Notes: generated by a model from the letters alone, not told the origin. Shown: positions 21,300 through 58,858, counted from the stretch's first letter. The stretch: DNA of 64,000 nucleotides from Alphaproteobacteria bacterium (GCA_049318825.1 JBMOFM010000006.1:50013-114012); one strand, 5' to 3'. A program made the numbers and translations.

Positions 21300-21660
21300 C
21301 ATCCCCCCCCCTCACCCCTACCCTCTCCCAGAGGGAGAGGGGAAAATAAGGGCAGTCTCTCTCTCAGAGTGAGAGGGAGAAATAAGCGAGCACTTCTCCC
21401 AGAGGGAGTAAAATACTACCCTCTCCCATAGGGAGAGGGGAAATAAGGGGGTACCCTCTCTCCCAAAATTATAAAAACTGGGAGAGGGCTGATACATTTA
21501 CCCCCTCTCCCTTTGGGAGAGGGCAGGGTGAGGGTGTGCTTTCCCAAAAAAGAGACGGGAAAGGGATAAAAAAGGACGGCACTATCCAATTTATAAAAAA
21601 CGCAATTTTACTTAAACTCCCTCTCCCCCAAATTATAAAAACTGGGAGAGGCTGATGGTT
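21300..21660. repeat. cluster of short palindromic (hairpin-forming) repeats built on CCCTCTCCC-N3-GGGAGAGGG
   Basis: At least six units, at about 21321, 21354, 21393, 21419, 21453, 21501 and 21619. Variants include ccctctcccagagggagagggg and ccctctcccatagggagagggg (both followed by gaaaataaggg), ctctctcagagtgagaggg, and ccccctctccctttgggagaggg. Two larger-loop copies share about 35 bp (tcccaaaattataaaaactgggagagg, at 21463 and 21624). The cluster lies in the 480-bp gap between convergent genes. Confidence 0.7.
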
Positions 21661-23155: not shown

Positions 23156-24412
23156 ATGCTAAGCTATCACCAGAATATCTTGCATCTTGATGATGTGCCC
23201 CTGCCCCTTATTGCCGAAAAATTTGGCACGCCATGCTATATTTACAGCCAAAAAAAGCTGCATGAGCAATATCACCTTCTGGCTAATGCCCTAAAGGGGG
23301 TGGATGCCCGCATTTGTTTTGCGGTAAAGGCCAATAGTAATTTAGCCGTGTTGAAAGCCTTGGGTCAATGGGGGGCTGGGGCGGATATTGTTTCAGCGGG
23401 GGAAATGAAGCGGGCACTGGCGGCAGGTATAAAAGCCGAGCATATGGTATATTCTGGCGTGGCTAAAACCACTCAAGAAATGGAATTTGCCCTTGGGCAA
23501 GGCATTGGCCAAATTAATGTGGAAAGCGTGCCAGAAATAGCCGCTTGGTCGGCCGTGGCCAGCCGTTTGAATAAAATTGCCCCTATTGCTATTCGCGTGA
23601 ACCCCGATGTGGATGCCGGCACCCACGCTAAAATTACCACGGGGCTAAAGCATAATAAATTTGGCATTGATTTGGCCATGGCACTGGAAGTTTGCCGTAT
23701 TGCCCAAACGCAGCCCCATGTAAAATTGGTGGGGTTGGCTTGTCATATTGGCTCGCAGCTTACCAGCCTTACGCCATTTCGCCGTGCTTTTAAGCGTTTG
23801 CATAAAGCGGTGTTGATGTTGGCAGAACAGGGCATCACGCTGGAGCGGTTGGATATTGGCGGTGGTTTGGGGGTGGCGTATAACACCGAAACCCCGCCCC
23901 CCGTGGAAGATTACGCTAAGCTTATTCGTGAAGAATTGGGCGATTTGGGGCTGAAATTGGTGTTGGAGCCGGGGCGTTTTCTGGTGGCAGAAGCGGGCAT
24001 ATTGCTCACACAAGTGGTGGTGGTAAAAACATTGCCCGAACGCCGTTTTTTACTGGTGGATGCGGGCATGAATGATTTGGTACGCCCCGCCATGTATGAT
24101 GCGTGGCACAATATTTTGCCCGTGCAGCAGAATAACAACAGCGAAACACTAGATTTTGATGTGGCAGGGCCGGTGTGTGAATCATCGGATGTGTTTGGCT
24201 ATGATCGGCTATTTCCTGCCAATATTGCCACGGGCGCGCTGTTGGCTATTACCCATGCGGGGGCTTATGGCTCGGTGATGTCTTCTTTTTATAATAGCCG
24301 CGCGCTTGTGCCAGAAATATTGGTGCATAATCAACAATTGGCGATGACCAGACAACGTGTTAGCATTGAAGAACAGATGAACTGGGAAACAATACCGGCT
24401 TGGCTCACATAA
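23156..24412 (+). CDS. lysA: diaminopimelate decarboxylase
   Basis: CFAVKANSN PLP-lysine motif, GGGLG, EPGRFLVAEAG, CESSD; 418 aa. Confidence 0.9.
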   Translation: MLSYHQNILHLDDVPLPLIAEKFGTPCYIYSQKKLHEQYHLLANALKGVDARICFAVKANSNLAVLKALGQWGAGADIVSAGEMKRALAAGIKAEHMVYSGVAKTTQEMEFALGQGIGQINVESVPEIAAWSAVASRLNKIAPIAIRVNPDVDAGTHAKITTGLKHNKFGIDLAMALEVCRIAQTQPHVKLVGLACHIGSQLTSLTPFRRAFKRLHKAVLMLAEQGITLERLDIGGGLGVAYNTETPPPVEDYAKLIREELGDLGLKLVLEPGRFLVAEAGILLTQVVVVKTLPERRFLLVDAGMNDLVRPAMYDAWHNILPVQQNNNSETLDFDVAGPVCESSDVFGYDRLFPANIATGALLAITHAGAYGSVMSSFYNSRALVPEILVHNQQLAMTRQRVSIEEQMNWETIPAWLT

Positions 24413-26880
24413 AAACTGTACATAAAGCACCTTTATTTGGTGCATCCCCCCATTCTACCCCCGCCGCTACGCCTTCTATTAGTGGCTGGCGGCTTGGGTT
24501 GGCCTATGTTTTTGTGGCCATAGAACAGATATGGGGCTGTTACTGGCCGCTCACCGCCCTATGGGGGGCATGGTTGGGGCTGGCGTTGGCGGGCATCATT
24601 GCTTTATTGCCCTTCTGGTTGCATGGCTTGTTATTATTGGGTTTGGTGGCTGCCACGGTGTTTTTAGGGTGGCGGGCAAGCCGCCATTTATCATGGCCGA
24701 ATCGTTACCATATCTGGCAACGCATGGAAAAAGCGGGAGCGATTTTGCATCAACCCAGCCTGCAATTAATCGATAAACTGCCCAGCACCATGGCGCACAA
24801 CCCAACCACGCAGGCTTTATGGGCACTGCAACAGCAAAAAAACCGCGTTTTATTGCGGGGGATGCGGGTATTCTGGCCGCGGCCTGTTTTATTGCCCGCC
24901 GATCATTACTGCCTATTACCCATGGCGTTGATGTTGGCTTTGTTGGGTTTAGCGGTGGCACGGGGCAATTGGCAGCCCTTGCAGCAATCTTTCCTGCCCC
25001 AATGGCCCAGCATGGTGGCCATGAATACGCAACATATCAGCGGTTGGGCTGTGCCCCCGCAATATACCGCCTTGCCGCCTATATTGCTGGCAGAAGGGGG
25101 CAGTGCTAGCCCTGTGGCCATCCCCATTGGTAGTGCTATTACCATTACCGCTAATGGGGATGCTGATGGCCTAAAGCTGGTGATAAACCGTGAACATAGC
25201 CCCTTGAAAAAACAGGCAGAAGATAGCTGGAAAGCCGAAGCCAATTTTACGGGCGGCGATTCTATTGCTGTGGCCTCTTATTTTTTTACTAAAAGCCGTT
25301 GGCCAGTGCAAGCTGTTGCCGATGCTCCGCCCCGTATCAGCTTTAAGGAATATCCCACCATTAATCAGCAAAACCGCATTAATATTGCCTTAGATGTGCA
25401 AGATGATTATGGGGTGAAGGATATTATTATCAAAGCCAGATTGGCGGATGTAGAACAAGCCACCAGTGAAATATTATGGTCTTTAACCCTCAGCCCCACC
25501 CTTGCCCAGAAACAGCAATTGCTCACCTTGGATTTAACCAGCCATTATTGGGCGGGCAATCCCGTGATTTTATGGGCGGAGGCCAGTGATGCTGCCGCCC
25601 ACACCGCAAAAACCGATGAGGTGCGCCTCAGCCTACCAGAAAAAACATTCAATAATAAAATTGCCAAATTATTGATTGAAGAGCGCAAAAGGCTGGAAAA
25701 AACGCCCCAAGATTGGCTGAAAACCGTAGAAACCTTGCATAATATTGCCGCCAAACCGCAAGAATTTAATGAAGATAGCAGCATTTATCTGGGCTTGAAG
25801 GTGGCATCGCAAATATTATGGCGCCTTGGCAGTGGTGAGCATTCCAATATTAACCCTGAAAATATTGAGCCCGTACGGCAGATGTTATGGCAAATGGCCT
25901 TGGCTTTAGAAAATAGCAGCGCGGGGGCTAAATTGCAGGCCATGCAGCGGCAATTGGAAGAAATGTTGCAAAGCCAGCAAACCACCCCCAAGCAATTATC
26001 GGAAAGCTTGCAGCGTTTACAGCAAGCCATGGGGGAGCAATTTGCCAAATCGTTACAGGAATTACAGAAAAAAATGGCTAAAGCGGGGTTAAAGCCAGAA
26101 GATTTTGCTAACCAACCCGCCGAAGATATGGGCAATAATTTAAGCCAAACCCTGAAAGATATGCAAAAAATGGCCGAAATGGGGGATAAGCAGGGCATGG
26201 CCGAAAAACTGAATGAATTACAACAGATGATGGAGAATGTACAAAAAACGCCCACGGTTGAAGAGCTGAAAAAAATGGCCGAAATGAATAAATTGGCGCA
26301 AAAACTCAAAGATATTACCCAAAAGCAGCAATCTTTACTGGATAAAACCTACCCTTCTGCCACTAAAGGCCGTTATATGAGTGAGCAGGATGGCCAGCAA
26401 TTGCAGCAATTGGGGCAAGAACAGCAAAATTTGCGCAAAGAGCTGGGCGATGCCATGCAGCAAATGGATGAAGCCGGCGGCGATATTCCTAAAAACTTGC
26501 AAGAAGCCGATAAGCATATGCGTGAATCACGCCAGAATTTACAGCAAGAAGATGCAGGCGCGGCGGTTTTTTCACAAAATTCGGCATTGAAATCATTGCA
26601 AGAGGGGGCAGAAAAATTAGGCCAGCAACAGCGTAAAATGAGCCAAGGCATGTTGGTGCCCATGCCCTTGAATAATGCGGGCAATAATAAAGATAAGGAT
26701 CCATTTGGCCGTAAGGGCGCATCGGGTAAGGATTTGGATGATGAACGGGTAAAAGTGCCAGAAGAAATTGCCCGCGAGCGCGCTCGCGAAATTTTGCAGC
26801 AATTGCGTAACCGTTCTGGCGATCAACATCTATCGCCCATGGAGCGGGAATATTTAGAAGGGTTGATGAAACAGTTTTAG
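24400..26880 (+). CDS. large membrane-anchored, Gln-rich coiled-coil protein (possibly TIGR02302/DUF4175 family)
   Basis: 826 aa. N-terminal TM helices; a long Q/E/K-rich helical C-terminal half. Overlaps the lysA stop, which is the typical alphaproteobacterial lysA neighbour arrangement. The family call is from memory and is weak. Confidence 0.35.
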   Translation: MAHIKTVHKAPLFGASPHSTPAATPSISGWRLGLAYVFVAIEQIWGCYWPLTALWGAWLGLALAGIIALLPFWLHGLLLLGLVAATVFLGWRASRHLSWPNRYHIWQRMEKAGAILHQPSLQLIDKLPSTMAHNPTTQALWALQQQKNRVLLRGMRVFWPRPVLLPADHYCLLPMALMLALLGLAVARGNWQPLQQSFLPQWPSMVAMNTQHISGWAVPPQYTALPPILLAEGGSASPVAIPIGSAITITANGDADGLKLVINREHSPLKKQAEDSWKAEANFTGGDSIAVASYFFTKSRWPVQAVADAPPRISFKEYPTINQQNRINIALDVQDDYGVKDIIIKARLADVEQATSEILWSLTLSPTLAQKQQLLTLDLTSHYWAGNPVILWAEASDAAAHTAKTDEVRLSLPEKTFNNKIAKLLIEERKRLEKTPQDWLKTVETLHNIAAKPQEFNEDSSIYLGLKVASQILWRLGSGEHSNINPENIEPVRQMLWQMALALENSSAGAKLQAMQRQLEEMLQSQQTTPKQLSESLQRLQQAMGEQFAKSLQELQKKMAKAGLKPEDFANQPAEDMGNNLSQTLKDMQKMAEMGDKQGMAEKLNELQQMMENVQKTPTVEELKKMAEMNKLAQKLKDITQKQQSLLDKTYPSATKGRYMSEQDGQQLQQLGQEQQNLRKELGDAMQQMDEAGGDIPKNLQEADKHMRESRQNLQQEDAGAAVFSQNSALKSLQEGAEKLGQQQRKMSQGMLVPMPLNNAGNNKDKDPFGRKGASGKDLDDERVKVPEEIARERAREILQQLRNRSGDQHLSPMEREYLEGLMKQF
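26797..26880 (+). repeat. left copy of an 84-bp direct repeat (the 3' end of the 826-aa gene)
   Basis: cagcaattgcgtaaccgttctggcgatcaacatctatcgcccatggagcgggaatatttagaagggttgatgaaacagttttag recurs at 28003..28086 with 81/84 identity. Confidence 0.85.
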
Positions 26881-26970
26881 GGATATTGGCGGCGCGTGGC
26901 GTTGTTGCTGTGGTGTTTTTGGTGTAAATAAATTATTTATTTTAGGTAAATAATTTTTTACTACCATCGG

Positions 26971-27837
26971 GTGTTATGCGTTATGGCCGAAATTCTGGAT
27001 AAAAATGGGGATGTTATTTTTTCTATGAAGGGTTCCGATCTGGAAGCCGTATCTTACCTGCAAAATAATACAACTATTTCTATGCGTGGTATAGCCTTAG
27101 AAAAATGTAAGGGTAGTTTTTTTGATCAATTGGGGAAACTGCAATCCAGATCTGCTAATGTTTTTTCCAGCACTTCTCATAGACCCAAAGATATGCGGGA
27201 GGGTAGCTTTGTTCAATGCTGGCATGAAAACTATTATCCGATATCAGCCTATGATTTTTCTGGGGCAATTTTTAAGGATTGTTTTATAAAGGTTTCTTCT
27301 TCAAAAGCAGATGGTTTTCACTTATGTAATTTCCGCGCTGCGCAATTTATTAACTGCACCATCACCGGAAATTTTCATTATTGCGATCTTTCAGGGGTAG
27401 ATTTTAGTAACAGTAATACAGCCAGGGTTAAATTTGGTGATAATTGGTATGATGATAATAGTCATTTAGTTAGTTATGGGGTTGCTCTACCCAAAAAAGT
27501 GGAGCGCGTAAAAAAAAGAATAGAGCAAATTTTCAATTGGGATAAAATTATTCAAACACCGCCGCAACATGTTGGCGGTATTACGCCAGCCCTACAACAA
27601 CAGCTGGAAGCTATTATTAATGCTTCGCCTGAGCAGGCACAGCGATTATTACATGAAGCGAGACCGCAAGATATATTGGCTCTGGAATTGGCGGCTGATC
27701 TTTCTACGCTTTACAATAAAGTTGCCTTACCCGCCGATGATTCACTTGAAAATCACCAGCAGCGGCCTGATTTAACCAACCAACAAATTGCTGATATTGT
27801 GCGTATGGTCATGAAAAATCGCGGCCGCCGTCCTTGA
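26971..27837 (+). CDS. hypothetical protein with pentapeptide-repeat-like segments, carried on a roughly 1.1-kb insertion
   Basis: 288 aa. Central CNFRAAQFINCTITGNFHYCDLSGVDFSNSNTARVKFGD resembles pentapeptide-repeat units. Flanked by the 84-bp direct repeats. Confidence 0.45.
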   Translation: MLCVMAEILDKNGDVIFSMKGSDLEAVSYLQNNTTISMRGIALEKCKGSFFDQLGKLQSRSANVFSSTSHRPKDMREGSFVQCWHENYYPISAYDFSGAIFKDCFIKVSSSKADGFHLCNFRAAQFINCTITGNFHYCDLSGVDFSNSNTARVKFGDNWYDDNSHLVSYGVALPKKVERVKKRIEQIFNWDKIIQTPPQHVGGITPALQQQLEAIINASPEQAQRLLHEARPQDILALELAADLSTLYNKVALPADDSLENHQQRPDLTNQQIADIVRMVMKNRGRRP

Positions 27838-27888
27838 ACTGCCTTTTAGCGAAATCATTGCTCAAGCGGAATAAACATTAAAGGCTTG

Positions 27889-27933
27889 TTATAGTAGATG
27901 AACTATAAGGATGCTTAAGTTCATCTACTATAA
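27889..27933 (+). terminator. perfect 16-bp inverted repeat (stem-loop) downstream of the inserted gene
   Basis: ttatagtagatgaact - 13-nt loop - agttcatctactataa, followed by an A/T-rich stretch. It could be a terminator or a recombination site. Confidence 0.5.
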
Positions 27934-28002
27934 AATCTATAATTTACGGCACAAAGAGTGCCGCAGCGGCAGTCGCTGCTGTGATATAGTGGGCAAGATG
28001 GC

Positions 28003-28086
28003 CAGCAATTGCGTAGCCGTTCTGGCGATCAACACCTCTCGCCCATGGAGCGGGAATATTTAGAAGGGTTGATGAAACAGTTTTAG
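28003..28086 (+). repeat. right copy of the 84-bp direct repeat
   Basis: 81/84 identical to 26797..26880, including the TAG stop of the upstream gene. Confidence 0.85.
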
Positions 28087-28114
28087 TTTTTGCCTAGATC
28101 GTAAAGCACTAGAT

Positions 28115-28564
28115 TCATTGAGGCGGCATCATGGGTGGGGGCATCATGGGATCTAATTTCTTGAGATGCTCTGCTAGTTTTTTTCTTTCTTCACCATTCA
28201 AGCCCCTGATAAATACCACTAAATTCTCCATAATTTCATTTTGCAGGTCATCACGCATAGTGTTCATTTGCTTGAATTGTTTGCGAAAACTTTCTTCATC
28301 AAAATCTGTTGCCGTGATAATGGCAAATAATTTTTCTCTCATTTCATCCATCTCGGCTTTAGATGCCTGATGTTTTGCGATAGTGCGCAGCATTGTTTGA
28401 TGAAACATTTCAGCTTTTTCTGGTGGCAGAAAACGCAGTAATTCCTGATGTTGCCGTTCAATGATAAAGGCAGGCATCATCAAAGGATTCAGACCAAATC
28501 TTGCAACATGGCCAATAAAAACTGCCAGCAGCAAACAATTAAGCCCAATAGAAAGCAACAGCAA
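28115..28564 (-). CDS. membrane-anchored periplasmic helical protein, Spy/CpxP/ZraP-like (metal or envelope-stress associated)
   Basis: N-terminal TM, a helical domain, and a C-terminal Pro/Met tail DPMMPPPMMPPQ. Located downstream of the ECF sigma / anti-sigma pair. Confidence 0.4.
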   Translation of the reverse strand: MLLLSIGLNCLLLAVFIGHVARFGLNPLMMPAFIIERQHQELLRFLPPEKAEMFHQTMLRTIAKHQASKAEMDEMREKLFAIITATDFDEESFRKQFKQMNTMRDDLQNEIMENLVVFIRGLNGEERKKLAEHLKKLDPMMPPPMMPPQ

Positions 28565-28581
28565 TATTTTAAGCGATCTAC

Positions 28582-28890
28582 TTATAGCAAGCCTCCATTA
28601 TCATATATCATTGTGGGGAGTGGAGAAATCTGTTGTTTCTGGCTAATGCCAACAATACCAGAAAACCCAATAAGAAAACCAATAATCATCAAAGAAGCCA
28701 TGGTAGGCATAAGATAAGGAATGTTAAATTCACGCAAGAAACCCATGGATTGTAGACTAAAACGGGTTTTTTCCATTTGTTGATGGTGATAGCTGCAAGC
28801 AATAATCCGTGACAGAAAATCTTCTGATGGCGTGAATTTCTTACGTTCAAGTAATATTTTTTCGAGTTCAGCATCGCTTAAATTTTTCAT
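28582..28890 (-). CDS. putative anti-sigma factor (single-pass membrane)
   Basis: 102 aa with a cytoplasmic N-terminus and one TM (YLMPTMASLMIIGFLIGF). Translationally coupled to the ECF sigma gene (ATGA overlap at 28890). Confidence 0.4.
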   Translation of the reverse strand: MKNLSDAELEKILLERKKFTPSEDFLSRIIACSYHHQQMEKTRFSLQSMGFLREFNIPYLMPTMASLMIIGFLIGFSGIVGISQKQQISPLPTMIYDNGGLL

Positions 28891-29468
28891 TACTTTACCC
28901 TCACATCATTATGCTCATTTAAGGACGCTAATTTTATGCGCAGTTTATTTTTTGCCCGCATAATTAAAGATTGTAAGGCTTTTACACTCATGCCCATGAT
29001 ACTGGCCGCTTCCTGATTACTGAATTCTTCATAAAAACACAAATTCAATGCCATTTGTTGATGCTGTGGTAAGGATAAGATTGCCGCCCCCAGCATTTTT
29101 TGTTTTGCTTGTTCCTCGATTTTTACATCAATGGCCATGCTCTCATCCTGCAATTCTTCTAGGGCTTCATTCACCGTATTTTTCTTGGATTTTATGAGGT
29201 TTAGTGCCCTATTGGTAATAATTTGATAAAACCATGTGGTAAATTTTACCCCTCTATGAACATCAAAACGCCAAGGCTCTTTCCATAATTGTAGAAATGC
29301 CTCTTGTACAACATCTTCAGCGTCTTGAGAATGCTGAACAATACGCTGCGCTACCCGAAAAAAACGCACACCATGCCGTTGAACCAGTTCAGCAAATGCA
29401 GAATGAACCCCCTTTGAAATATCGACAACCAACTCTTCATCCGTGAATGAACGAAAATTCTCCTGCAT
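28890..29468 (-). CDS. ECF (sigma-70 family group IV) RNA polymerase sigma factor
   Basis: Region 2 (DAEDVVQEAFLQLW) and region 4 HTH (QEAASIMGMSVKALQSLIMRAKNKLR). Confidence 0.8.
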   Translation of the reverse strand: MQENFRSFTDEELVVDISKGVHSAFAELVQRHGVRFFRVAQRIVQHSQDAEDVVQEAFLQLWKEPWRFDVHRGVKFTTWFYQIITNRALNLIKSKKNTVNEALEELQDESMAIDVKIEEQAKQKMLGAAILSLPQHQQMALNLCFYEEFSNQEAASIMGMSVKALQSLIMRAKNKLRIKLASLNEHNDVRVK

Positions 29469-29494
29469 TTGCCAAACTTTACCAACAGAGAATT

Positions 29495-29764
29495 TTAATC
29501 ATGGCATATTTTTTCTTTCAGCTTTTGCTGATGCAATGATTTAGCTTCTTCTCTGGTGACAATTCCATCCTTGTTTTTATCCATTTGTGTGAATATTTTG
29601 CTGTGAAAATTAATAACTTCTTCTTTGGTTAGCTGACCATCGCCATTAACATCCATTTCTTTGAACATATCTTCTGGGGGAAAAGGCGGCTCAAAAGCCC
29701 TAACCTCAGCGATCATTCCAACCCATAATGATGCAATCAACAATAAAACTGTACTTTTTTTCAT
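29495..29764 (-). CDS. secreted EF-hand calcium-binding protein
   Basis: Signal peptide, then two canonical EF loops: DVNGDGQLTKEEV and DKNKDGIVTREEA. Confidence 0.7.
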   Translation of the reverse strand: MKKSTVLLLIASLWVGMIAEVRAFEPPFPPEDMFKEMDVNGDGQLTKEEVINFHSKIFTQMDKNKDGIVTREEAKSLHQQKLKEKICHD

Positions 29765-30002
29765 TAAACCTCCTGAAATTGAGTTAAGTTAAATACACAT
29801 CTTATTGTTTATACAAACCACTACTCACAAATCTTCGGTTGGTTTGAAAATAAATCTCGCACGGAAATTATCCCCCGCACCCCTTTTTTATTTCTGGCAC
29901 GATTCTTGCTAGGGTTACAATCGTGCCATGTTTTAAGCATTGGCTCGTTACTGGGCATGGAATGATCCATGCCCAGCGTATTTTTGTAAAAAGGAGAAGT
30001 TA

Positions 30003-30608
30003 ATGAATATTTCAGGTTTTTCATCCCTGAGTAGTGCTGGTTTTGATCCTTCAAAATTCAGCCAGAAAATTCAGGATAAGTTTACCAAAGATTTTGGTAG
30101 TGAGGCCTTAGCAGGGGTTCAAGATAAAGATGGCAATATTGACCCTAGTAAAATGAAAAGTTTTATGGAAAGCAAAGGCATGAAACCCCCAGCAGGTGCG
30201 CCGCCATTTGGCCAGATGGGTGGTGCTGGTGGCCCACCTTCTGGTATGGGTGGCCCTGATGGGGTTAGTAAAAGTGCTGGTGGGGATCAGAAAATTCTTG
30301 ATCTATTTAAACAAAGCTCGGATGAAGATGATGATGATGACTCATCAAACAAAATAACCGATAGCAATGGAAAAGTAGATTATAGCAAATTAAAGGATTT
30401 TCTTGATAAAGCTATTAATTCATTACAGAGCAATGCCAAAAGCTATTCAGCTGATGGCGCAGGTTCTGGTTTTGACCTCACCAGCTTTCTTGGTAAGCAA
30501 TCTTCGAACACAAGCAGCAGTAGTGATGATCTACAATCTCAATTGCTGCAAAGCCTATTTGGTAATAATGGCAGCAAAAATGGCTTATTTACCGATCTTA
30601 ATGCCTAG
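30003..30608 (+). CDS. low-complexity acidic, Gly/Ser-rich protein (likely disordered), function unknown
   Basis: Start moved to MNISGFSSL, preceded by AAAGGAGAAG. Contains SSDEDDDDDSS, GGAGGPPSGMGGPDG, and a poly-S stretch. Confidence 0.4.
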   Translation: MNISGFSSLSSAGFDPSKFSQKIQDKFTKDFGSEALAGVQDKDGNIDPSKMKSFMESKGMKPPAGAPPFGQMGGAGGPPSGMGGPDGVSKSAGGDQKILDLFKQSSDEDDDDDSSNKITDSNGKVDYSKLKDFLDKAINSLQSNAKSYSADGAGSGFDLTSFLGKQSSNTSSSSDDLQSQLLQSLFGNNGSKNGLFTDLNA

Positions 30609-30724
30609 AAACCTCTAGGTGAGACTCAGTGCCAGATATTCATCTTGCAAACGAAACAATCACTGAGCCCCATTATCATACAATTTTTCTACAGATTATC
30701 TTCGATGCTTACAGTAGATATTTT

Positions 30725-39247: not shown

Positions 39248-40036
39248 GTGAGTAATGAAGCAGCCGAAATGGAAGCACAGGAAAAATATAGCACAATGAT
39301 GCTGGCGGTGGATGCGATCAGAGCCTATCAAGAAAAAAACTCTGATTTTATTTGGCAGAGAAAAGAAAATTTTCTGAGCGAATATCGACAGGGTCGGCGT
39401 GATTTTGCAGGTGAAGATTTGCGCGGGTTGTGCCTTGAATATAGCGGTATCCCACAATTTGAGAATTTAGTGCTGGATGATGCTAATGTAAGTGGCAGTC
39501 AATTCACAAGAGTAAAGTTCATTAATTTAAGCGCGAAAAATGCCCTATTCACTGATGTGGAAATGATAGAGATTATTGCTGAAGGGGCTGATTTCAGCGG
39601 TACTAATTTAGATAATATTGATGGTCATGAAGCCAGATTAGGCGGTTCAAATTTTTTTGGTGCGTCCCTCATTTATGCAAGTTTACGAAAAAGCAGTTTA
39701 TGGGAGTGTAATTTTACCGATGCGGATTGTACTTATGCCCAATTGAATGAGGCAAGCCTGAGAAGAGCAGATTTATGGAAAGCGTGTTTCTTGGCCGCCG
39801 GTCTTACAGAGGCTAAATTACAAGAAGCGAAATTGTACGATGCGGATTTTAGATTAGCGAACATTAGCGCCGCAAAATTTGAAAAGGCCGTGCCCAATAG
39901 CCAAACAATATGGACGGGCAGCCGCAATAGCCCTGAATCATTGCCAGAAGGCATGACGGCAGAGGCATTCAGCCAATTACAAAACCCTTCTGTAAAAAAA
40001 GCTGCCCCTAAAAGAAAGTTGGGATTGTGGTGGTAA
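39248..40036 (+). CDS. pentapeptide-repeat protein, paralog 1
   Basis: 262 aa, possible GTG start. The central region has runs of A-[DN]-[LF]-x-x pentads (ADFSGTNLDNIDGHEARLGGSNFFGASL...ADLWKACFLAAGLTEAKLQEAKLYDADFRLANISAAKF). Confidence 0.65.
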   Translation: MSNEAAEMEAQEKYSTMMLAVDAIRAYQEKNSDFIWQRKENFLSEYRQGRRDFAGEDLRGLCLEYSGIPQFENLVLDDANVSGSQFTRVKFINLSAKNALFTDVEMIEIIAEGADFSGTNLDNIDGHEARLGGSNFFGASLIYASLRKSSLWECNFTDADCTYAQLNEASLRRADLWKACFLAAGLTEAKLQEAKLYDADFRLANISAAKFEKAVPNSQTIWTGSRNSPESLPEGMTAEAFSQLQNPSVKKAAPKRKLGLWW

Positions 40037-40189: not shown

Positions 40190-40966
40190 ATGAGCAATGA
40201 AGCAGCCGAGATGGAAGCACAGGAAAAATATCGCACAATGATGCTGGCGGTGAATGCGATCAGAGCCAATGAAGGAGTGTCTGGTCAGGCAGCACAAAGT
40301 TTTGCTAGCGATTATCAACATGGGCGGCGTGATTTTGCAGGCGAAGATTTGAGTGGGTTGTGGCTTAACTATAGCGGTATTCCACAATTTGAGAATTTAG
40401 TGCTGGATGGTGCCAAAGTAACTGGCGGTGTATTCACAGGAGTAAAGTTCATTAATTTAAGCGCGAGAGATGCCCTATTCACTGATACGCAAATGCAAAG
40501 GGTTATTTGTGAAGGTGCTGATTTCAGCGGCGCTAATTTAGATAATATTGATGGTCATGAAGCCAGATTAAATGGTTCAAATTTTTTTGGTGCGTCCCTA
40601 ATTCTCGCAAGTTTACGAAAAAGCAGTTTATGGGAGTGTAATTTTACCGATGCGGATTGTACTTATGCCCAATTGAATGAGGCAAGCCTGAGAAGAGCAG
40701 ATTTATGGAAAGCGTGTTTCTTGGCCGCCGGTCTTACAGAGGCTAAATTACAAGAAGCGAAATTGTACGATGCGGATTTTAGATTAGCGAACATTAGCGC
40801 CGCAAAATTTGAAAAGGCCGTGCCCAATAGCCAAACAATATGGACGGGCAGCCGCAATAGCCCGAAAACCTTGCCAGAAGGCATGACGGCAGAGGCATTC
40901 AGCCAATTACAAAACCCATATGTAAAAAAAGCTGCTCCCACAAAAAAATGGGGATTGTTGTGGTAA
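40190..40966 (+). CDS. pentapeptide-repeat protein, paralog 2
   Basis: 258 aa. The N-terminal 20 aa and C-terminal 150 aa are near-identical to paralog 1; the middle has diverged. Confidence 0.65.
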   Translation: MSNEAAEMEAQEKYRTMMLAVNAIRANEGVSGQAAQSFASDYQHGRRDFAGEDLSGLWLNYSGIPQFENLVLDGAKVTGGVFTGVKFINLSARDALFTDTQMQRVICEGADFSGANLDNIDGHEARLNGSNFFGASLILASLRKSSLWECNFTDADCTYAQLNEASLRRADLWKACFLAAGLTEAKLQEAKLYDADFRLANISAAKFEKAVPNSQTIWTGSRNSPKTLPEGMTAEAFSQLQNPYVKKAAPTKKWGLLW

Positions 40967-46483: not shown

Positions 46484-47791
46484 ATGAAGGGTTTAACGCG
46501 CCAGCAATGGATTGTTTTTATTGCGGCTTGGTTGGGTTGGGGCTTTGATGTTTTTGACGGATTGCTGTTCAATTACGTTGCCCCCAATTGCGTGCCAACC
46601 CTGTTGGGGCTTGAGATTGGCTCTCCTGCTGCCAAGGCTGCCACTTTGTATTGGACAGGCCTCATCACCTCTATGCTATTGCTGGGCTGGGCGGCAGGTG
46701 GAATTATTTTCGGCTATATTGGCGATAGGTTAGGGCGCAGTAAAACCCTGTTGCTCACCATGTTATTATATGCTTTGGGTACTGGCTTATGTGCTTTTGT
46801 GCCGAATATGGAATTATTATTACTGTGCCGTTTTATTGCCAGCCTTGGTATTGGTGGGGAATGGGCAGCGGGGGCTTCCATGGTGGCCGAAGCCATGCCC
46901 GAAAAATACCGCGTGGAAGCAGGGGCGTTGTTATATACCTCTGCGCCCATTGGGTTGTTTTTGGCCACAGCGGTGAATGCGATGATTACTGGTTTATTTC
47001 CTGATCAACCTGAGGTCTCGTGGCGTTATGTTTTTCTTTGTGGGTTAATTCCTGCTGCTTTAGCCTTTGTTATCCGTTTTTTCTTAAAAGAACCAGAACG
47101 CTGGCAAGAGGTGGCACAAAAGACAAAACCACCCCGTATTAGTGAATTATTTTCAGCCGAAAACCGCCGCTTTACTCGCAGCGGCGTATTAATGGCTTTG
47201 ATTGCTTTGCTCACATGGTGGAGTTGCAATGCTTTTATTCCCGTGGTGGCGGTGGGTCTAGGCCATGCCAGTGCAGAGGCTACAGGCATTATCGCCACGC
47301 AAGGCTTATTAGAAGGCTGGAAATCATGGCTTACTTCTGGCTTTAATTTGGGTGGCTTATTGGGTACATTGCTCACTATTCCAGCGGCCAAAATATTGGG
47401 CAGAAAAAAAATGTTCAGCCTTTATTTTGCGCTGGCTTCTCTTGCGTTACTCACGGCTTTTAGTGGGTTCATGCCGCAAGAGAAAATAGTGTGGACGGGC
47501 TTATATTTTGTGATTGGTCTCACGGTTTTTGGCGTATTTGGTAGTTTTACTTTTTACCTACCGGAACTTTTTCCTACCAGATTGCGCGCTACGGGTTCGG
47601 GCTTTTGCTATAATATTGGCCGCGTGATTACCTCTGTGGGCCCTTTTTTGGTCGGCAGCATCGCCGCACAAAAATCCAACGCCCTGCAAGGCGCGTTGGA
47701 TTTATTATTCTGGGTGGGCTTTATTCCCTTAATTGGCATTTTACTGATGCCTTTAGTGATAGAAACAAAAGGCCAAACATTGCGGGATTAG
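46484..47791 (+). CDS. MFS transporter
   Basis: 435 aa with 12 predicted TM and MFS loop motifs (G-x-x-x-D-R-x-G-R-like GDRLGRSKTLL). Confidence 0.7.
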   Translation: MKGLTRQQWIVFIAAWLGWGFDVFDGLLFNYVAPNCVPTLLGLEIGSPAAKAATLYWTGLITSMLLLGWAAGGIIFGYIGDRLGRSKTLLLTMLLYALGTGLCAFVPNMELLLLCRFIASLGIGGEWAAGASMVAEAMPEKYRVEAGALLYTSAPIGLFLATAVNAMITGLFPDQPEVSWRYVFLCGLIPAALAFVIRFFLKEPERWQEVAQKTKPPRISELFSAENRRFTRSGVLMALIALLTWWSCNAFIPVVAVGLGHASAEATGIIATQGLLEGWKSWLTSGFNLGGLLGTLLTIPAAKILGRKKMFSLYFALASLALLTAFSGFMPQEKIVWTGLYFVIGLTVFGVFGSFTFYLPELFPTRLRATGSGFCYNIGRVITSVGPFLVGSIAAQKSNALQGALDLLFWVGFIPLIGILLMPLVIETKGQTLRD

Positions 47792-49593
47792 TTGGATTGG
47801 CCATTATCAATTCTCTCCCCCATGAGGGCGCCATAGGCGGTGCTGAAGCCGGGGGTAGTGGCACCATTATATACCCCGCCTTCATGGGTGAAGTTCTGCA
47901 ATAGTTGGGTGTGTACCACCGCTATACCCGCTTGTACCAAATGCTGAACAAGTTGTGCCAATTCTATTCTGTTTTCTATAGCGGTGCCTTGATTTTTTAA
48001 CAGAAAGCGGCAGCGTTGATGATCCACCAGATAGGGGTCCATCAAGCTGGGCCACACCTCTTGCCCACGGTTGGTGATGCGTTGTAGCACATAATTTTCT
48101 CCCGCTGCTTCTTGCAATTGCTGCGCTAAAGATTGCAGAGCAATGATGGTTAATAACCGCCCCTGTTCTTGATATTTTTTCAATAGGGCAAGGGCTTCTG
48201 GTGCTGGCATTTGCTCAATAGATGCCGTGAAATAGCTATTATTAAACGACAAGCCGGCTTTTAAGGTGCGCACCCCCCAACTGATATATTCGCGTACACT
48301 CTCTGTTGTATGAAAATGGCTCACATTTAAGATGTCTTCATAATTTAAGCCTGTTTTCTGGTGCCAATATTGTAGAATATTGGCCTCTAATCCGTGCCAT
48401 TCAATAAACACATCCATCCCTAGAATATCGGTTTTTTGGGCTTTTACCAACATGGGTGGCGCCACGATTTTTTCTTTATGCGCGCGAAACTTATCCCATT
48501 TCAAGCAGCGTGCCTGTAGTGCCCCTTCTGGCACTTTTTGGCCGGATTTTATTTTTTCTAAACGCTGGGCAATTTCATCGCCAAATTCGTGGCAACCACG
48601 CTTTAATGAAACCGATGTTTCTTTCTCTTTTTCTTCTTGGTAAGCCCCGCGAATATCGCCAGTATGCACACCGTCTTGTAATGTCCATAACAGGGCATGG
48701 TATAAATGGCGCGCCGCTGTTTGATTACCATCGCCAATATGCACCAGCATATCAATAGCGGCCATTAATAAAGCCGTGGGGTTGGCCAGATTTTTGCCAG
48801 CAATATCGGGCGCGGTGCCGTGCATGGCTTCAAACATGGCATAATCTTGACCAATATTGGCTGAGCCCACCAAGCCAACGCCCCCCGCTAATTTTGCTGT
48901 AATATCTGAACCAATATCCCCAAAAATATTACTGGTAACCACCGCATCATATTTTTCTGGTTTAACTGCCAGTTCTGCTAGGCCATCATCAATATTTTTG
49001 AAAAATGAGGTGATGTGGGGCTCATATTCTTTAGCCAATTGCCAGAATATTTTTTCAAATAACCCGCCAGTATTTTTCAAAATATTGGGTTTTTCTAGCC
49101 CCAACATGGTTTTTCTACCCTGCTGCAGGGCCAATTCAAAAGCAATACGAATCGCTTTTTCACAGCCTTGATGGCTCATTAAACGCAAGGCCATTTTTAC
49201 ATTGGGGCTTTCATCATATTCAATGGCGGCGTATAAATCTTCAATATTTTCGCGCACAAATAATAAATCCATTTGTGGAAAATGGCTATCCACCACGGGG
49301 TAGAAGGAAGCACAGCGGCGCACCGAAACGCTTTGTTCAAAACCCTTACGCACCGTTACATTAAAGCTTTTACTGCCACCAATAGAAGAGGGGGTTTCTG
49401 TTGGCCCTTTCAGCACTATTTTATGCTTGCGAATAAGCGCAAAACAATCAGTAATTTCTTGCGCGCTGGCTTCTTTACCCAAATGGGCAGGAATAAAATC
49501 GATTTTCGCGCCCACTTTTTGTAAAAGACTAACCACCACATCACTAATTTCAGGCCCAATACCATCACCTTTAACCAAAACCACTGAACGCAT
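47788..49593 (-). CDS. isocitrate/isopropylmalate dehydrogenase-family enzyme fused to a roughly 255-aa C-terminal domain of unknown function
   Basis: N-terminal 345 aa: VVLVKGDGIGPEI, NIFGDIGSDITAKLAGGVGLVGSANIG, GTAPDIAGKNLANPTALLMA. The C-terminal 255 aa have no recognisable motif. Start set to ATG 49593 (RBS ggaga); the track extension to 49794 reads antisense through tRNA-His. Confidence 0.65.
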   Translation of the reverse strand: MRSVVLVKGDGIGPEISDVVVSLLQKVGAKIDFIPAHLGKEASAQEITDCFALIRKHKIVLKGPTETPSSIGGSKSFNVTVRKGFEQSVSVRRCASFYPVVDSHFPQMDLLFVRENIEDLYAAIEYDESPNVKMALRLMSHQGCEKAIRIAFELALQQGRKTMLGLEKPNILKNTGGLFEKIFWQLAKEYEPHITSFFKNIDDGLAELAVKPEKYDAVVTSNIFGDIGSDITAKLAGGVGLVGSANIGQDYAMFEAMHGTAPDIAGKNLANPTALLMAAIDMLVHIGDGNQTAARHLYHALLWTLQDGVHTGDIRGAYQEEKEKETSVSLKRGCHEFGDEIAQRLEKIKSGQKVPEGALQARCLKWDKFRAHKEKIVAPPMLVKAQKTDILGMDVFIEWHGLEANILQYWHQKTGLNYEDILNVSHFHTTESVREYISWGVRTLKAGLSFNNSYFTASIEQMPAPEALALLKKYQEQGRLLTIIALQSLAQQLQEAAGENYVLQRITNRGQEVWPSLMDPYLVDHQRCRFLLKNQGTAIENRIELAQLVQHLVQAGIAVVHTQLLQNFTHEGGVYNGATTPGFSTAYGALMGERIDNGQSN

Positions 49594-49717
49594 ATATTCT
49601 CCTATTGATAAAAGGGCAGTTAGAGAGCCATTTTTCTTTGCATGTGTCATCCTGACTTGAAAACAATATTGACGAAAGAGTAAAAATCTGAATAATGCAG
49701 TTTTATTAGTTAAGCAT

Positions 49718-49793
49718 GGCGGTTGTAGCTCAGCGGTAGAGCCCTCGGTTGTGGTCCGAGTTGTCGTGGGTTCGAACCCCATCAATCGCCCCA
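49718..49793 (+). tRNA. tRNA-His (GTG anticodon), with encoded G-1 and CCA
   Basis: Cloverleaf: G-1, acceptor gcggttg/caatcgc, D-arm tagctcagcggtagagc, anticodon stem ctcgg/ccgag with loop ttGTGgt, T-arm gtgggttcgaaccc, discriminator C, CCA. Confidence 0.85.
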
Positions 49794-49812
49794 TTCTTCA
49801 ACGATAATCTAT

Positions 49813-53472: not shown

Positions 53473-53541
53473 TCCATAAAAAAGACTAGCCATAAAAAAG
53501 GGTTGGCCATAAAAAAGGGTTGGCCATAAAAAAGGGCTGGC
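53473..53541. repeat. 17-bp tandem repeat (about 4 units) in the bioA leader
   Basis: (t/g)ccataaaaaag(a/g)(c/g)t(a/t)g units: tccataaaaaagactag, gccataaaaaagggttg x2, gccataaaaaagggctg. The last unit merges into a terminator hairpin. Confidence 0.7.
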
Positions 53542-53581: not shown

Positions 53582-54691
53582 TTACTGCGTAATAGAAGCA
53601 GTGTTGCTATTGCCTTGTTGAATAATACCAGCAATGTTACCAAAACCAGTTTGTATGAAGCTTTGGTAGTTGCTATCACCAATTTGTGAAGCGGTAATCA
53701 CGTTACCACCACTATATTGGCTAGCATAAATGCTGTTGAAATTACCAATTTGTTCGCCAGAGAAGCTTTGGTAATCATTTTCTTGATACAGCACGATGAT
53801 GTTGCTGTTGCCATTTTGGTAGGCATAAGCATAATCATAATTGCCCAATTGGGTAATATCAATCAGGTTATTTTCACCAAAGCTGTATAAATTAGTTGTA
53901 TTAAATTCACCCACGCGGAACAGGTTAATCACGTTGAACGTGCCAGCACCGCCCGTGCTATCTTGGTAAATAGAATCGGAGTTATTATCCCCAGTTTGGA
54001 TCAGGCTGTAGCTGTTGCCATCGCCATATTGAGAAATCAAACCAAAATTATTATTACCATCTTGCTCTAAATAAGCCTGATTATTGGAGCCATTTTGGTA
54101 CAAAATACCAAGGTTATAATTACCATTTTGCAAAATGCTGGCTAGGTTATTATCGCCATTTTCCTGCACGATGCTGGCGGCATTACCATCGCCATATTGG
54201 CTGATGGAGCCACTATTGCCCGAACCATTATATTGGGTAAGGAAAGTAGCGTTGCCATTGTCTTGGCTGTAAATAGAGCCAATGTTAGAATCGCCAAACT
54301 GAAGAGCATTAGATTGGTTATCATCGCCATATTGGGTGATAGAAAACACATTACCATTACCCACTTGGAAACCATATTGGTAGCCCGAATCGGTAAAATA
54401 AATACCGGGGCCTACAGAATTGCCATTACCATATTGGTTAACGCTAGCATTGTTGCTGTTGCCATTTTGTAAAAAAGGTTGAAACACACCTTCATTCAAA
54501 AAACCAATAATGTTGCTATCGCCTTGCTGATTGCCATAAAAGCTGTTGCCCTCACCGCTTACCTGATCGATACCCACTTGGTTGTTGAGGCCAGATTGGC
54601 TGATGGTGCTGGAGTTGCTATCAGCGTGCGCTGCGCTTGCTGCTAGGGTTAGCACCAACGCCATGGTGCCAAATAGAAAATTCTTGCTCAT
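53582..54691 (-). CDS. secreted curlin-repeat protein (CsgA/CsgB-like functional amyloid subunit)
   Basis: Signal peptide ...AASAAHA, then at least 10 imperfect 20-23-aa repeats with the curlin consensus S-x-I-x-Q-x-G-x-x-N-x-A-x-I-x-Q (ISQYGDGNAASIVQENGDNNLASILQNGNYNLGILYQNGSNNQAYLEQDGNNNFGLISQYGDGNSYSLIQTGDNNSDSIYQ). Confidence 0.6.
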   Translation of the reverse strand: MSKNFLFGTMALVLTLAASAAHADSNSSTISQSGLNNQVGIDQVSGEGNSFYGNQQGDSNIIGFLNEGVFQPFLQNGNSNNASVNQYGNGNSVGPGIYFTDSGYQYGFQVGNGNVFSITQYGDDNQSNALQFGDSNIGSIYSQDNGNATFLTQYNGSGNSGSISQYGDGNAASIVQENGDNNLASILQNGNYNLGILYQNGSNNQAYLEQDGNNNFGLISQYGDGNSYSLIQTGDNNSDSIYQDSTGGAGTFNVINLFRVGEFNTTNLYSFGENNLIDITQLGNYDYAYAYQNGNSNIIVLYQENDYQSFSGEQIGNFNSIYASQYSGGNVITASQIGDSNYQSFIQTGFGNIAGIIQQGNSNTASITQ

Positions 54692-55935: not shown

Positions 55936-56523
55936 ATGCCGCGGTTTAACCAACATTTTGCTTTGTGTTTAGTGATGGGGTTGTTATTGGCCGCTTGCGC
56001 TAAGCCGCCAGCCTCATCCATTCCACCCGTTTCTATCCAGTCCAAAGCACCAGTGTTACTGAATGTTGCCCAAATTCAAGTGGTGAATGAAATTCCACCG
56101 TCCAATTCTTCGCGCCAAGTAGAGCAGTGGTTTCCTACCCCGCCATATCAAGCCCTACGCCACATGGTAGAACAGCGTTTTAAGGCCGTGGGTAGTGAAG
56201 GCATTGCCACCATTCATTTGAAAGACATAAAAGTGGTGGAAGAAAATTTGCCCGTTACCGATGGTGTGGCCGGATTATTTGTGAGCGAACCATCCGAGCG
56301 TTACCGTGCTACCCTTAATGTGGCCGTGGATGCCGTTTCTGGCGATAGAACCCGTACCGCCAGCACCGAAATTCGCGCCGAGCAAACCACCACCGTACAA
56401 AAAGGGGCAACCCTTGCGGAACGGGAAGTGGTATGGGATAAATTGCTACAAGATATGCTGCGCCAGTTGGATAATAGCCTGAGTGAAGGGGTGCGGAAAT
56501 ATTTAGGGGCTTTTGTTCAGTAA
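55936..56523 (+). CDS. lipoprotein, unknown function
   Basis: Lipobox LLLAAC; 195 aa. Confidence 0.5.
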   Translation: MPRFNQHFALCLVMGLLLAACAKPPASSIPPVSIQSKAPVLLNVAQIQVVNEIPPSNSSRQVEQWFPTPPYQALRHMVEQRFKAVGSEGIATIHLKDIKVVEENLPVTDGVAGLFVSEPSERYRATLNVAVDAVSGDRTRTASTEIRAEQTTTVQKGATLAEREVVWDKLLQDMLRQLDNSLSEGVRKYLGAFVQ

Positions 56524-57537
56524 AGCTTTGGGGGCAACAGGTAGGCTGGTACGGGGGGCAGGTTCTAACTTGCCTGTTTCAGAATCGAGGCGTTCAAACC
56601 AGTGGGCAGAGCCTTGATACGCCCAAGCTTTACCCTTTTTATCTTCTTCTCCCACTGCTTTCCAGCTTTCAATAAGTTCCATGGTGCTGGCGGGGCATGG
56701 CGTGAGATCGGACGATTGGTTGACAGTTTCACAAAAAGCAGTGAGCGTGTGCATGGCTTGCACTGCTCGGTATAGCCACCAACCATGTGGTTCTGGGATG
56801 CCAAGAAGATTTTTCCTAGAATAGGGCGTTAGAGGAATGCGTCTTGGGGTATCTGAACCAATAATATCAGTTATTTTTTTGAATGCCAACACCAGTGATT
56901 CAGGCGGGTACCCAGCTTCATATAACCGGCGAATGGCGGAAAGATCGGCATTACGTTCATTGGCAGAAAGAGCCATTTCTGTGCCATCCGTGAATTTTAT
57001 TGTGCCGAATCGGTCGATGTTATGAAGGTTATCAATAGCGATAAATTCCCCTTCTTTAGCCGCCACTTCCCAATGGCCATATTCATGGGCCAATACTGCT
57101 GCCAATTGATTATCATTCAGCAATTCCAAGAACATTCTGGTAATGCCCAAATTGGGAAACTCAGCTGGGTATTGAGGGGCATACCATGCACTTATTTCGG
57201 TTTTGGTGCTGATTTCGATGACCATTTTTTGCAAGTTAAAGACCGCATGGTTAAGAGTTGAACCTGGGTAGGTATTGCTAGCTTTCGCCAAGCGCTGCGC
57301 GATTGCGATTAACCGTTTTACATCGGGATCTTCTGCCAGCCCTGACGCTGATTGTTGCGGTTTGGGGTTAAAAATAAAAGGCGATGATGGCTGCGATGAC
57401 GGAACGATGTTGCTATCATCGGCAAAAACGGGGCGGTTTATGGCAAAAATCGCAAGGGTGCTAGCTGAAATCACAGTCACCATTGCTGCACGATTGAAAA
57501 TCTTATGAAGATGCATGTGTTTACCGCTTGCCTGCAA
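56503..57537 (-). CDS. secreted M48-like zinc metallopeptidase-domain protein, tandem paralog A
   Basis: Signal peptide; AHEYGHWE (HExxH); ERNADLSAIRRLYEAGYPPESL (M48 ExxAD...AGYxP); C-terminal Cys pair AFCETVNQSSDLTPCPASTM. Confidence 0.55.
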   Translation of the reverse strand: MQASGKHMHLHKIFNRAAMVTVISASTLAIFAINRPVFADDSNIVPSSQPSSPFIFNPKPQQSASGLAEDPDVKRLIAIAQRLAKASNTYPGSTLNHAVFNLQKMVIEISTKTEISAWYAPQYPAEFPNLGITRMFLELLNDNQLAAVLAHEYGHWEVAAKEGEFIAIDNLHNIDRFGTIKFTDGTEMALSANERNADLSAIRRLYEAGYPPESLVLAFKKITDIIGSDTPRRIPLTPYSRKNLLGIPEPHGWWLYRAVQAMHTLTAFCETVNQSSDLTPCPASTMELIESWKAVGEEDKKGKAWAYQGSAHWFERLDSETGKLEPAPRTSLPVAPKALLNKSP

Positions 57538-57628
57538 TGCTGTAAACGCATAGCAATATTTCTTTCATAAGGCCAGTATAAATAATTATTCTTTGTGCTC
57601 TGCAACCATAAAACCAGAATATAGAAAA

Positions 57629-58768: not shown

Positions 58769-58858
58769 GGCTGTAAGGTGCTAAGGCAATTAAAAAACTC
58801 TATCATTTTACGATAATTAACGAGCAAACTCAAGTTGCTTTCTGCGCACAGCGATTTC

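Follow-up and report, generated by a model that had tools for sequence, protein, structure and literature searches.

Organization of the Locus

The analyzed window, 64,000 nt of an alphaproteobacterial metagenome-assembled genome (MAG; GCA_049318825.1, JBMOFM010000006.1:50013-114012), contains an intact gene of the DUF4175 family whose 3' end occurs twice, in the gene itself and again behind about 1.1 kb of unrelated DNA. This intervening DNA, designated segment X, encodes one protein, ORF284 (ORF, open reading frame), and the second 3' end proved to be the remnant of a dead gene copy, referred to below as the relic. The features that define the structure are the following (positions are counted from the first nucleotide of the window):

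24400..26880, + strand: intact DUF4175 / TIGR02302-like gene, 826 aa, downstream of lysA; matches PF13779 over its full length with 481 bits
26395..26404 (first) and 26797-26806 (second), + strand: two CAGCAATTGC 10-mers, the end points of the 402-nt deletion in the relic
26797..26880, + strand: repeat copy 1, the last 27 codons and TAG of the functional DUF4175 gene
26881..27975, + strand: segment X, ~1.1 kb, between gene and relic, unique to this locus
27976..28086, + strand: pseudogene relic of the DUF4175 3' region, ~99-111 nt, 5'-truncated, with 27988-28086 secure
28003..28086, + strand: repeat copy 2, 84 nt, the end 46-48 nt the same as in copy 1

Comparison of 26797-26880 with 28003-28086 revealed a direct repeat of 84 nt with 81 identical positions. 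The mismatches (copy 1/copy 2) are 26810 A/G, 26829 T/C, and 26832 A/C, and the final 46-48 nt of copy 2 are free of them. Both copies end in TAG and part company at the very next base, copy 1 running into GGATATT and copy 2 into TTTTTGC. In a repeat search of the whole window, the other long repeats were only tandem paralogous genes and intragenic repeats; since no comparable pair was found elsewhere in the window, the 84-nt repeat is not a chance match. A preliminary description of this DNA had reported the repeat with its stop codon and degree of identity, an intervening 288-aa ORF, a perfect 16-nt inverted repeat at 27889-27933, and the lack of a transposase or integrase. The sequence comparison bore out the repeat, the ORF and the inverted repeat were both found, and no transposase or integrase domain was detected in the ORF.

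The Second Repeat Copy Is the Tail of a Dead Gene Fragment

The homology of copy 2 to the DUF4175 gene reaches upstream of 28003, with 27976/27988-28002 matching 26368/26380-26394. The 15-27 nt located 5' of copy 2 thus resemble a part of the gene that lies ~400 nt further upstream (26368-26404). The match between 27988-28002 (AGTGGGCAAGATGGC) and 26380-26394 comprises 13 of 15 positions, and allowing one indel extends it to 27976 / 26368. In an anchored test against every CAGCAATTGC of the window, 0 of 20000 random sequences scored as high (P<5e-5). The relic corresponds to ~26368-26404 fused directly to 26807-26880, the equivalent of 26405-26806 (402 nt, 134 codons, in-frame) being absent. 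Among seven DUF4175 proteins, 15 invariant columns fall into the missing 134 aa, which identifies the relic as a deletion derivative and not as an ancestral short form. The relic also carries an in-frame TGA at 27982, and its TAG and the stop of the Spy/CpxP-like gene, which is convergent, are 28 nt apart, a normal spacing for such genes. No further pieces of the DUF4175 gene were found in segment X with blastn-short and tblastn.

Two readings of the left edge of the relic are possible: 27976-27987 could be relic sequence or junction microhomology. The short match of GCTGTGATAT (27976-27985) to GCCGTTATAT (26368-26377), 8 of 10 positions, fits microhomology and decayed relic alike. All eight differences between relic and gene were located in the left 62 of 110 aligned columns, the last 48 nt being the same (P about 0.01). 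Gene conversion, a recombination core, or constraint on this sequence as the 3' flank of the convergent operon are possible reasons for such clustering.

The DUF4175 3' region thus exists in a second, dead copy that is truncated at its 5' end, and copy 2 is the tail of this so far unannotated pseudogene fragment. The view of the preliminary description that the locus is the footprint of an insertion or recombination event was upheld in that two DUF4175 3' ends surround a one-gene, recombinase-free segment of 1.1 kb.

Host Gene and Its Surroundings

The DUF4175 protein clearly belongs to its family (481 bits against the PF13779 cut-off of 27.3), and it stays under the cut-off of the NCBIfam equivalog TIGR02302 (257.6 against 394.3). 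Within the family, conservation is highest in the motif formed by the C-terminal 28 aa. The closest DUF4175 homologues are 25-28% identical, and when 185,579 species genomes were scanned with this protein, with confirmation by tblastn, nothing was retrieved. Exact 45-mer scans of genome and metagenome contigs for the DNA of the locus likewise gave nothing. The order lysA-DUF4175 is kept in two distant relatives (L003 and L004). In them different genes follow DUF4175, so synteny breaks on its 3' side in any case.

The genes in the scanned region of 9-38 kb are ordinary chromosomal ones: argG, ribA, genes for a glycosyltransferase, a GGDEF protein, a TPR protein, and UPF0262, hisG, lysA, a two-component system, a T2SSE ATPase, a bioD-like gene, and genes for YceI and ackA. 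No recombinase domain was present in the 30 larger ORFs scanned there.

Non-Coding Features of Segment X

Segment X and its right-hand neighborhood contain these additional features:

26887..26920, + strand: terminator-like hairpin and T run immediately behind the DUF4175 stop, where X begins on the left; a consensus match only
26983..27837, + strand: ORF284, orphan protein of 284 aa from the ATG annotated by NCBI (288 aa from the GTG at 26971)
27889..27933, no strand assigned: AT-rich hairpin with perfect 16-nt arms (27889-27904 / 27918-27933), no T tract
27947..27981, no strand assigned: two small GC-rich hairpins immediately 5' of the relic
28115..28564, - strand: Spy/CpxP-like (Metal_resist, PF13801; LTXXQ-like) gene, convergent, the last gene of an operon with an extracytoplasmic function (ECF) sigma factor

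Apart from ORF284, the segment contains ORFs of at least 50 aa only in frames overlapping it. Neither the window nor the fetched loci contain a second copy of the non-coding parts of X, and the ends of 26881-27975 carry no inverted repeats. An AT-rich leader of ~60 nt separates the terminator-like hairpin from ORF284, and with these two elements in front of it the gene is probably transcribed on its own. The strong hairpin begins 51 nt past the ORF284 stop. Beyond the perfect arms the pairing continues to a stem of 20 bp in total, with one base bulged and a loop of 4 nt (-23.8 kcal/mol as RNA), and folding of the entire spacer 27838-28002 gave z = -6.2. This hairpin probably ends or stabilises the ORF284 transcript and shields the convergent operon.

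No match to this hairpin was found in Rfam, nor were other copies found in metagenome and viral contigs; the window contains one weak match with 3 mismatches inside another ORF. An integron cassette was also considered. An attC site consists of R''/R' cores (RYYYAAC ... GTTRRRY), with an integron integrase and attI nearby. By inspection, the hairpin at 27889-27933 lacks GTTRRRY/RYYYAAC cores and no integrase was found in the scanned ORFs, so this candidate was rejected.

ORF284 and Its Only Relative

In ORF284 an N-terminal region is followed by a center that weakly resembles pentapeptide repeats, and the C-terminal third is helical. Residues ~92-155 weakly matched PF13599, Qnr models, and MfpA (PDB 6zt4, E 0.022). 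The Pfam cut-offs were missed (PF13599, 23.1 bits against 38; PF00805, 17.6 against 20.2). ORF284 resembles the pentapeptide proteins Qnr and MfpA in this region, with all scores below the family cut-offs, and differs from them in its unrelated N-terminal and helical C-terminal regions. AlphaFold2 models built from the single sequence or from a two-sequence alignment were unusable (predicted local distance difference test, pLDDT, 37) and displayed only short strands at 78-156. Two genuine pentapeptide-repeat proteins (PF00805, 72 and 71 bits) are encoded in tandem at 39248-40036 and 40190-40966, their DNA segments being 86-88% identical. No significant similarity of ORF284 to these two proteins was detected.

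Among 5.8 billion clustered proteins ORF284 found only itself. A HMMER search over 1.84 billion representatives retrieved a single real relative, P0010, of 296 aa (27-30% identity, E 7e-9), and a profile made of the two sequences attracted no additional members. P0010 is encoded on another contig of the same MAG (locus tag ACOYK8_00950; accessions MFZ4761370 and MFZ4762095). ORF284 and P0010 hence form a two-member, lineage-restricted family within one MAG. Neither ORF284 nor segment X was found in the other genomes, metagenomes, phages, and plasmids searched.

The preliminary description had proposed a search of the ORF against effector databases. An effector, phage, plasmid, or defence origin found no backing: ORF284 matched nothing in the PHROG, phage, and plasmid sets, and its NCBIfam matches (HalA and Qnr) stayed far under the cut-offs.

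The P0010 gene starts 129 nt beyond the 3' end of a tRNA gene (...GGTTCAAGTCCCTCCGCCCGCACCA; L005 1-160, Logan SRR30676221_108927). The L005 unitig breaks exactly 30 nt into the tRNA end plus 3 nt, in the manner of a repeat boundary. No repeated tRNA end was found within 3.7 kb at the P0010 locus. The idea of common element ends at the ORF284 and P0010 loci was abandoned, as alignments of the flanks were unconvincing and no tRNA-end repeat was present.

Base Composition

The GC content and the GC content at third codon positions (GC3) of ORF284 amount to 0.40 and 0.32, against window means of 0.455 and 0.43. The next five genes past the relic have a GC content of 0.36-0.41, and in both GC and GC3 they are at the level of ORF284. 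The two measures fall at 26880, the stop codon of DUF4175, and remain low to ~30.6 kb. Six low-GC genes (0.36-0.41) are thereby delimited, namely ORF284, the Spy-like gene, and genes for a 102-aa protein, the ECF sigma factor, an EF-hand protein, and a 222-aa low-complexity protein, compared with 0.48-0.52 for hisG-lysA-DUF4175.

Composition therefore does not single out the insert. The GC check suggested in the preliminary description did return a low value, yet one that the five downstream genes share. As a sign of transfer, composition was accordingly rejected: ORF284 sits in the low tail of the window but is equal to the next five genes. Horizontal acquisition of ORF284, as claimed in the preliminary description, is no more than a possibility.

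Read-Level Support

Exact-protein look-ups gave two Logan unitigs (k=31) of run SRR30676221, each with one end inside the repeat, exactly 30 nt (k-1) from the right-hand limit. L001 equals 26851-27925 of the window and continues into the ORF; L002 has its end at 28057 and continues into the LTXXQ-like gene. In the reads the shared 3' end continues either as GGATATT or as TTTTTGCC. Branching of the k=31 unitigs at the end of the repeat implies that both junctions are real in the reads. The k=31 graph was unable to pair the left halves with the right flanks because the last 46 nt are identical.

The other end of L001, at 27925-27926, lies in the right arm of the 20-bp hairpin, where no repeat or palindromic k-mer accounts for it. 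The break at 27925 may reflect a coverage drop or a population variant.

Other Features of the Window

Several other features were noted. Between the TPR gene and the UPF0262 gene, the intergenic region 21310-21660 contains at least six CTCTCCC-N3-5-GGGAGAG palindromes, resembling repetitive extragenic palindromic elements in units of ~35 nt. Three 17-nt tandem units (AAAAAGGGTTGGCCATA) at 53478-53541 adjoin a gene for a curlin-repeat protein (53582-54691, PF07012). Three tandem paralogous genes with DNA segments 73-77% identical occupy 56503-60007, and the two that were scanned gave weak Peptidase_M48 matches. A tRNA-His gene (49719-49793, + strand) overlaps the 5' end of the mechanically called ORF 47788-49794 (- strand), so the real start of this ORF must be further in.

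Discussion

The intact DUF4175 gene is followed by segment X and then by a chimeric relic of its own 3' region, X and the scanned ORFs carry no recombinase genes, and ORF284 is an orphan. A 5'-truncated second copy of a gene beyond unrelated DNA is the signature of homology-assisted insertion, and the locus has the layout expected of displacement: a silent, 5'-truncated fragment downstream of the intact gene, with non-homologous DNA between them. The relic pattern requires that a second, longer copy of the 3' region of the gene once existed, either on the incoming DNA or as the resident gene. We estimate the probability that a homology-assisted insertion displaced a 3' gene fragment downstream at roughly one in two. 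What we infer from the structure is how the events were ordered, which way the transfer went, and how the locus is expressed.

In the proposed history, DNA with the 3' portion of a DUF4175 gene and segment X would have joined the chromosome via homology inside the DUF4175 3' region. It may have been a linear fragment whose left end recombined homologously and whose right end was joined illegitimately (homology-facilitated illegitimate recombination), or a small circle with a gene fragment that entered by a single Campbell-type crossover. Either route would yield an intact gene, then X, then a 5'-truncated fragment beside the original neighbor, the convergent ECF-sigma/Spy-like operon. The imperfect match of GCTGTGATAT to GCCGTTATAT at the left edge of the relic may represent the microhomology of the illegitimate joint. 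The silent fragment would later have lost 402 nt by slippage or recombination between the CAGCAATTGC 10-mers, and the relic would afterwards have gained point changes and one indel. The present structure would be passive. The 46-48 nt of identity could still allow a precise, RecA-dependent loss of X, which would leave one intact gene differing at most by N804S.

Several observations speak against this history. The skew of the differences into the left 62 of 110 columns is not what simple neutral decay predicts, and is a hint of gene conversion or of a site-specific core. The homology stops exactly at the stop codon, as a replacement 3' end borne by an element would predict more directly. The match at 27976-27987 could be junction microhomology and not relic sequence. 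The linkage across the 46-nt identical stretch is provided by the MAG assembly alone (a 123-kb contig). Finally, no related genome was found in the searches, and with it no empty site, donor arrangement, or evidence of polarity.

The points about the stop codon and the skew count in favor of a different explanation, in which the locus is what remains of a site-specific integrative element, or of a miniature, integrase-less one mobilised in trans, that targeted the DUF4175 3' end with a replacement tail; the repeats would then be attL and attR, and all but one cargo gene would since have been deleted. The direct repeats are formed by the 3' end of the target gene, which remains intact, and end exactly at its stop codon, the perfect end block of 46-48 nt with differences to its left is what would surround a crossover core, a strong hairpin lies near one end, and the architecture is documented for icd/icdC (PMC13626634). 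The sole paralogue of the cargo gene lies 129 nt past a tRNA 3' end, a classic island site, with a unitig break there, but the tRNA end has no second copy within 3.7 kb and homology between the flanks of the two paralogues is not clear. Neither X nor the 30 larger ORFs scanned at 9-38 kb encode an integrase or excisionase, ORF284 has no PHROG, phage, or plasmid match, and gene sequence from ~400 nt upstream, as seen in the relic, is not predicted by an att crossover in the last 84 nt. We consider this origin unlikely. Its more specific version would make the 1206-nt unit of X plus relic a miniature integrase-less mobile cassette with a replacement tail, moved in trans by a recombinase encoded elsewhere in this uncultured alphaproteobacterium and inserting at the 3' ends of conserved genes, with ORF284/P0010 as lineage-specific cargo, its second member located at a tRNA 3' end, and the 46-48-nt block and the hairpin as the recombination site; we give this idea very little credence. 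The polarity might also be reversed, DUF4175-ORF284 being the older arrangement and the low-GC block to the right (~27976-30700, the relic with the Spy-like, anti-sigma, ECF-sigma, and EF-hand genes) having been imported with a donor DUF4175 tail. The relic is attached to the downstream operon at the normal convergent spacing of 28 nt, the GC step is located at 26880 with all of 26983-30608 equally low so that X is not marked as the newcomer, and the gene after DUF4175 varies in distant relatives. Such an import would nevertheless need illegitimate joins at both ends of a ~2.7-kb block, and no second scar was found near 30.7 kb; besides, ORF284 is an orphan whereas the ECF-sigma operon is ordinary chromosomal equipment. 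The reversed order is distinctly improbable.

The source is a short-read MAG, and an artefact of assembly or population heterogeneity has to be weighed as well: two haplotypes, or an empty site together with a 1206-nt circular or alternative form, might have been merged into one path across the 46-nt identity. Linkage is not provided by the k=31 unitigs, which are interrupted at the repeat, and L001 also ends, unexplained, at 27925 within the hairpin. Against this, 46 nt is shorter than the usual final assembly k-mers and than reads, the three allele differences at 46-71 nt from the junction allow phasing by ordinary reads, and the contig of the window is 123 kb long. In the reads X joins gene-derived sequence on both sides, so the relic-X junction is real whatever the linkage. 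An artefact is very unlikely. Transposition generates a short target-site duplication of fixed length (about 2-14 bp), both copies of which are identical. Direct repeats around a discrete segment are present here, and the preliminary description held that the event had duplicated the target. Taken as a target-site duplication, that claim did not stand: a repeat of 84-111 nt is too long, copy 2 is imperfect (3-8 differences) and chimeric, and segment X has neither terminal inverted repeats nor a transposase, so copy 2 is not the target duplication of a transposition. Insertion of a transposon or insertion sequence is contradicted by the structure of the relic and can practically be dismissed.

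Displacement of gene tails by homology-anchored insertion has precedents. In arrays of effector-immunity genes of type VI secretion systems (T6SS) the same architecture is found and both mechanisms have been proposed (PMC5361080), and at Rhs loci "C-terminal displacement" through a circular intermediate leaves orphan 3' fragments (PMC2935791). Like displacement at Rhs, CdiA, and T6SS loci, the structure studied here comprises an intact gene, new DNA, and a silent, 5'-truncated 3' fragment, involves no dedicated recombinase, and has a layout explained by a homology anchor within the gene. Unlike in those systems, displaced and active tails share 96% identity, so there is no alternative C-terminus and no toxin/immunity logic; DUF4175 is a conserved alphaproteobacterial membrane protein and not a polymorphic toxin, and a single event is seen instead of an array.

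The integration of e14 or phage 21 in icd provides a second parallel, with the order icd ... prophage ... icdC pseudogene (PMC13626634, citing Hill et al. 1989). In both cases an element separates an intact gene from a C-terminal pseudogene fragment, the duplicated 3' end carries few, mostly silent, changes, and a single chimeric gene would result from recombination of the two copies. Unlike the DUF4175 locus, with its 1.1 kb and no recombinase, e14 is ~15 kb long, possesses an integrase, and excises on SOS induction. The relic described here, unlike icdC, includes sequence from ~400 nt upstream and has suffered an internal deletion.

Cis-mobilizable elements (CIMEs) are integrase-less, att-flanked derivatives of integrative and conjugative elements (ICEs) that are located at the 3' ends of target genes, e.g., fda in Streptococcus thermophilus. 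With CIMEs the locus shares a small cargo bounded by direct repeats of a gene 3' end and the absence of a recombination module. It differs in its longer, chimeric repeat, and neither an integrase nor a cognate ICE is known from this MAG.

For the reading of similar loci the structure is a caution that a flanking repeat need not mean target duplication or prove horizontal transfer. At the 84-nt repeats precise deletion could occur, and short-read assemblies may go wrong there. Current understanding is left unchanged, and the value of the finding lies mainly in correct annotation. Altogether, a known kind of structure, an ordinary scar of recombination, is presented in a fresh instance, with an orphan gene, from a poorly sampled alphaproteobacterial MAG. 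It would be a clean single-event case outside toxin loci, in which a gene was added behind a conserved gene, the old tail was displaced, and the machinery of a mobile element is gone.

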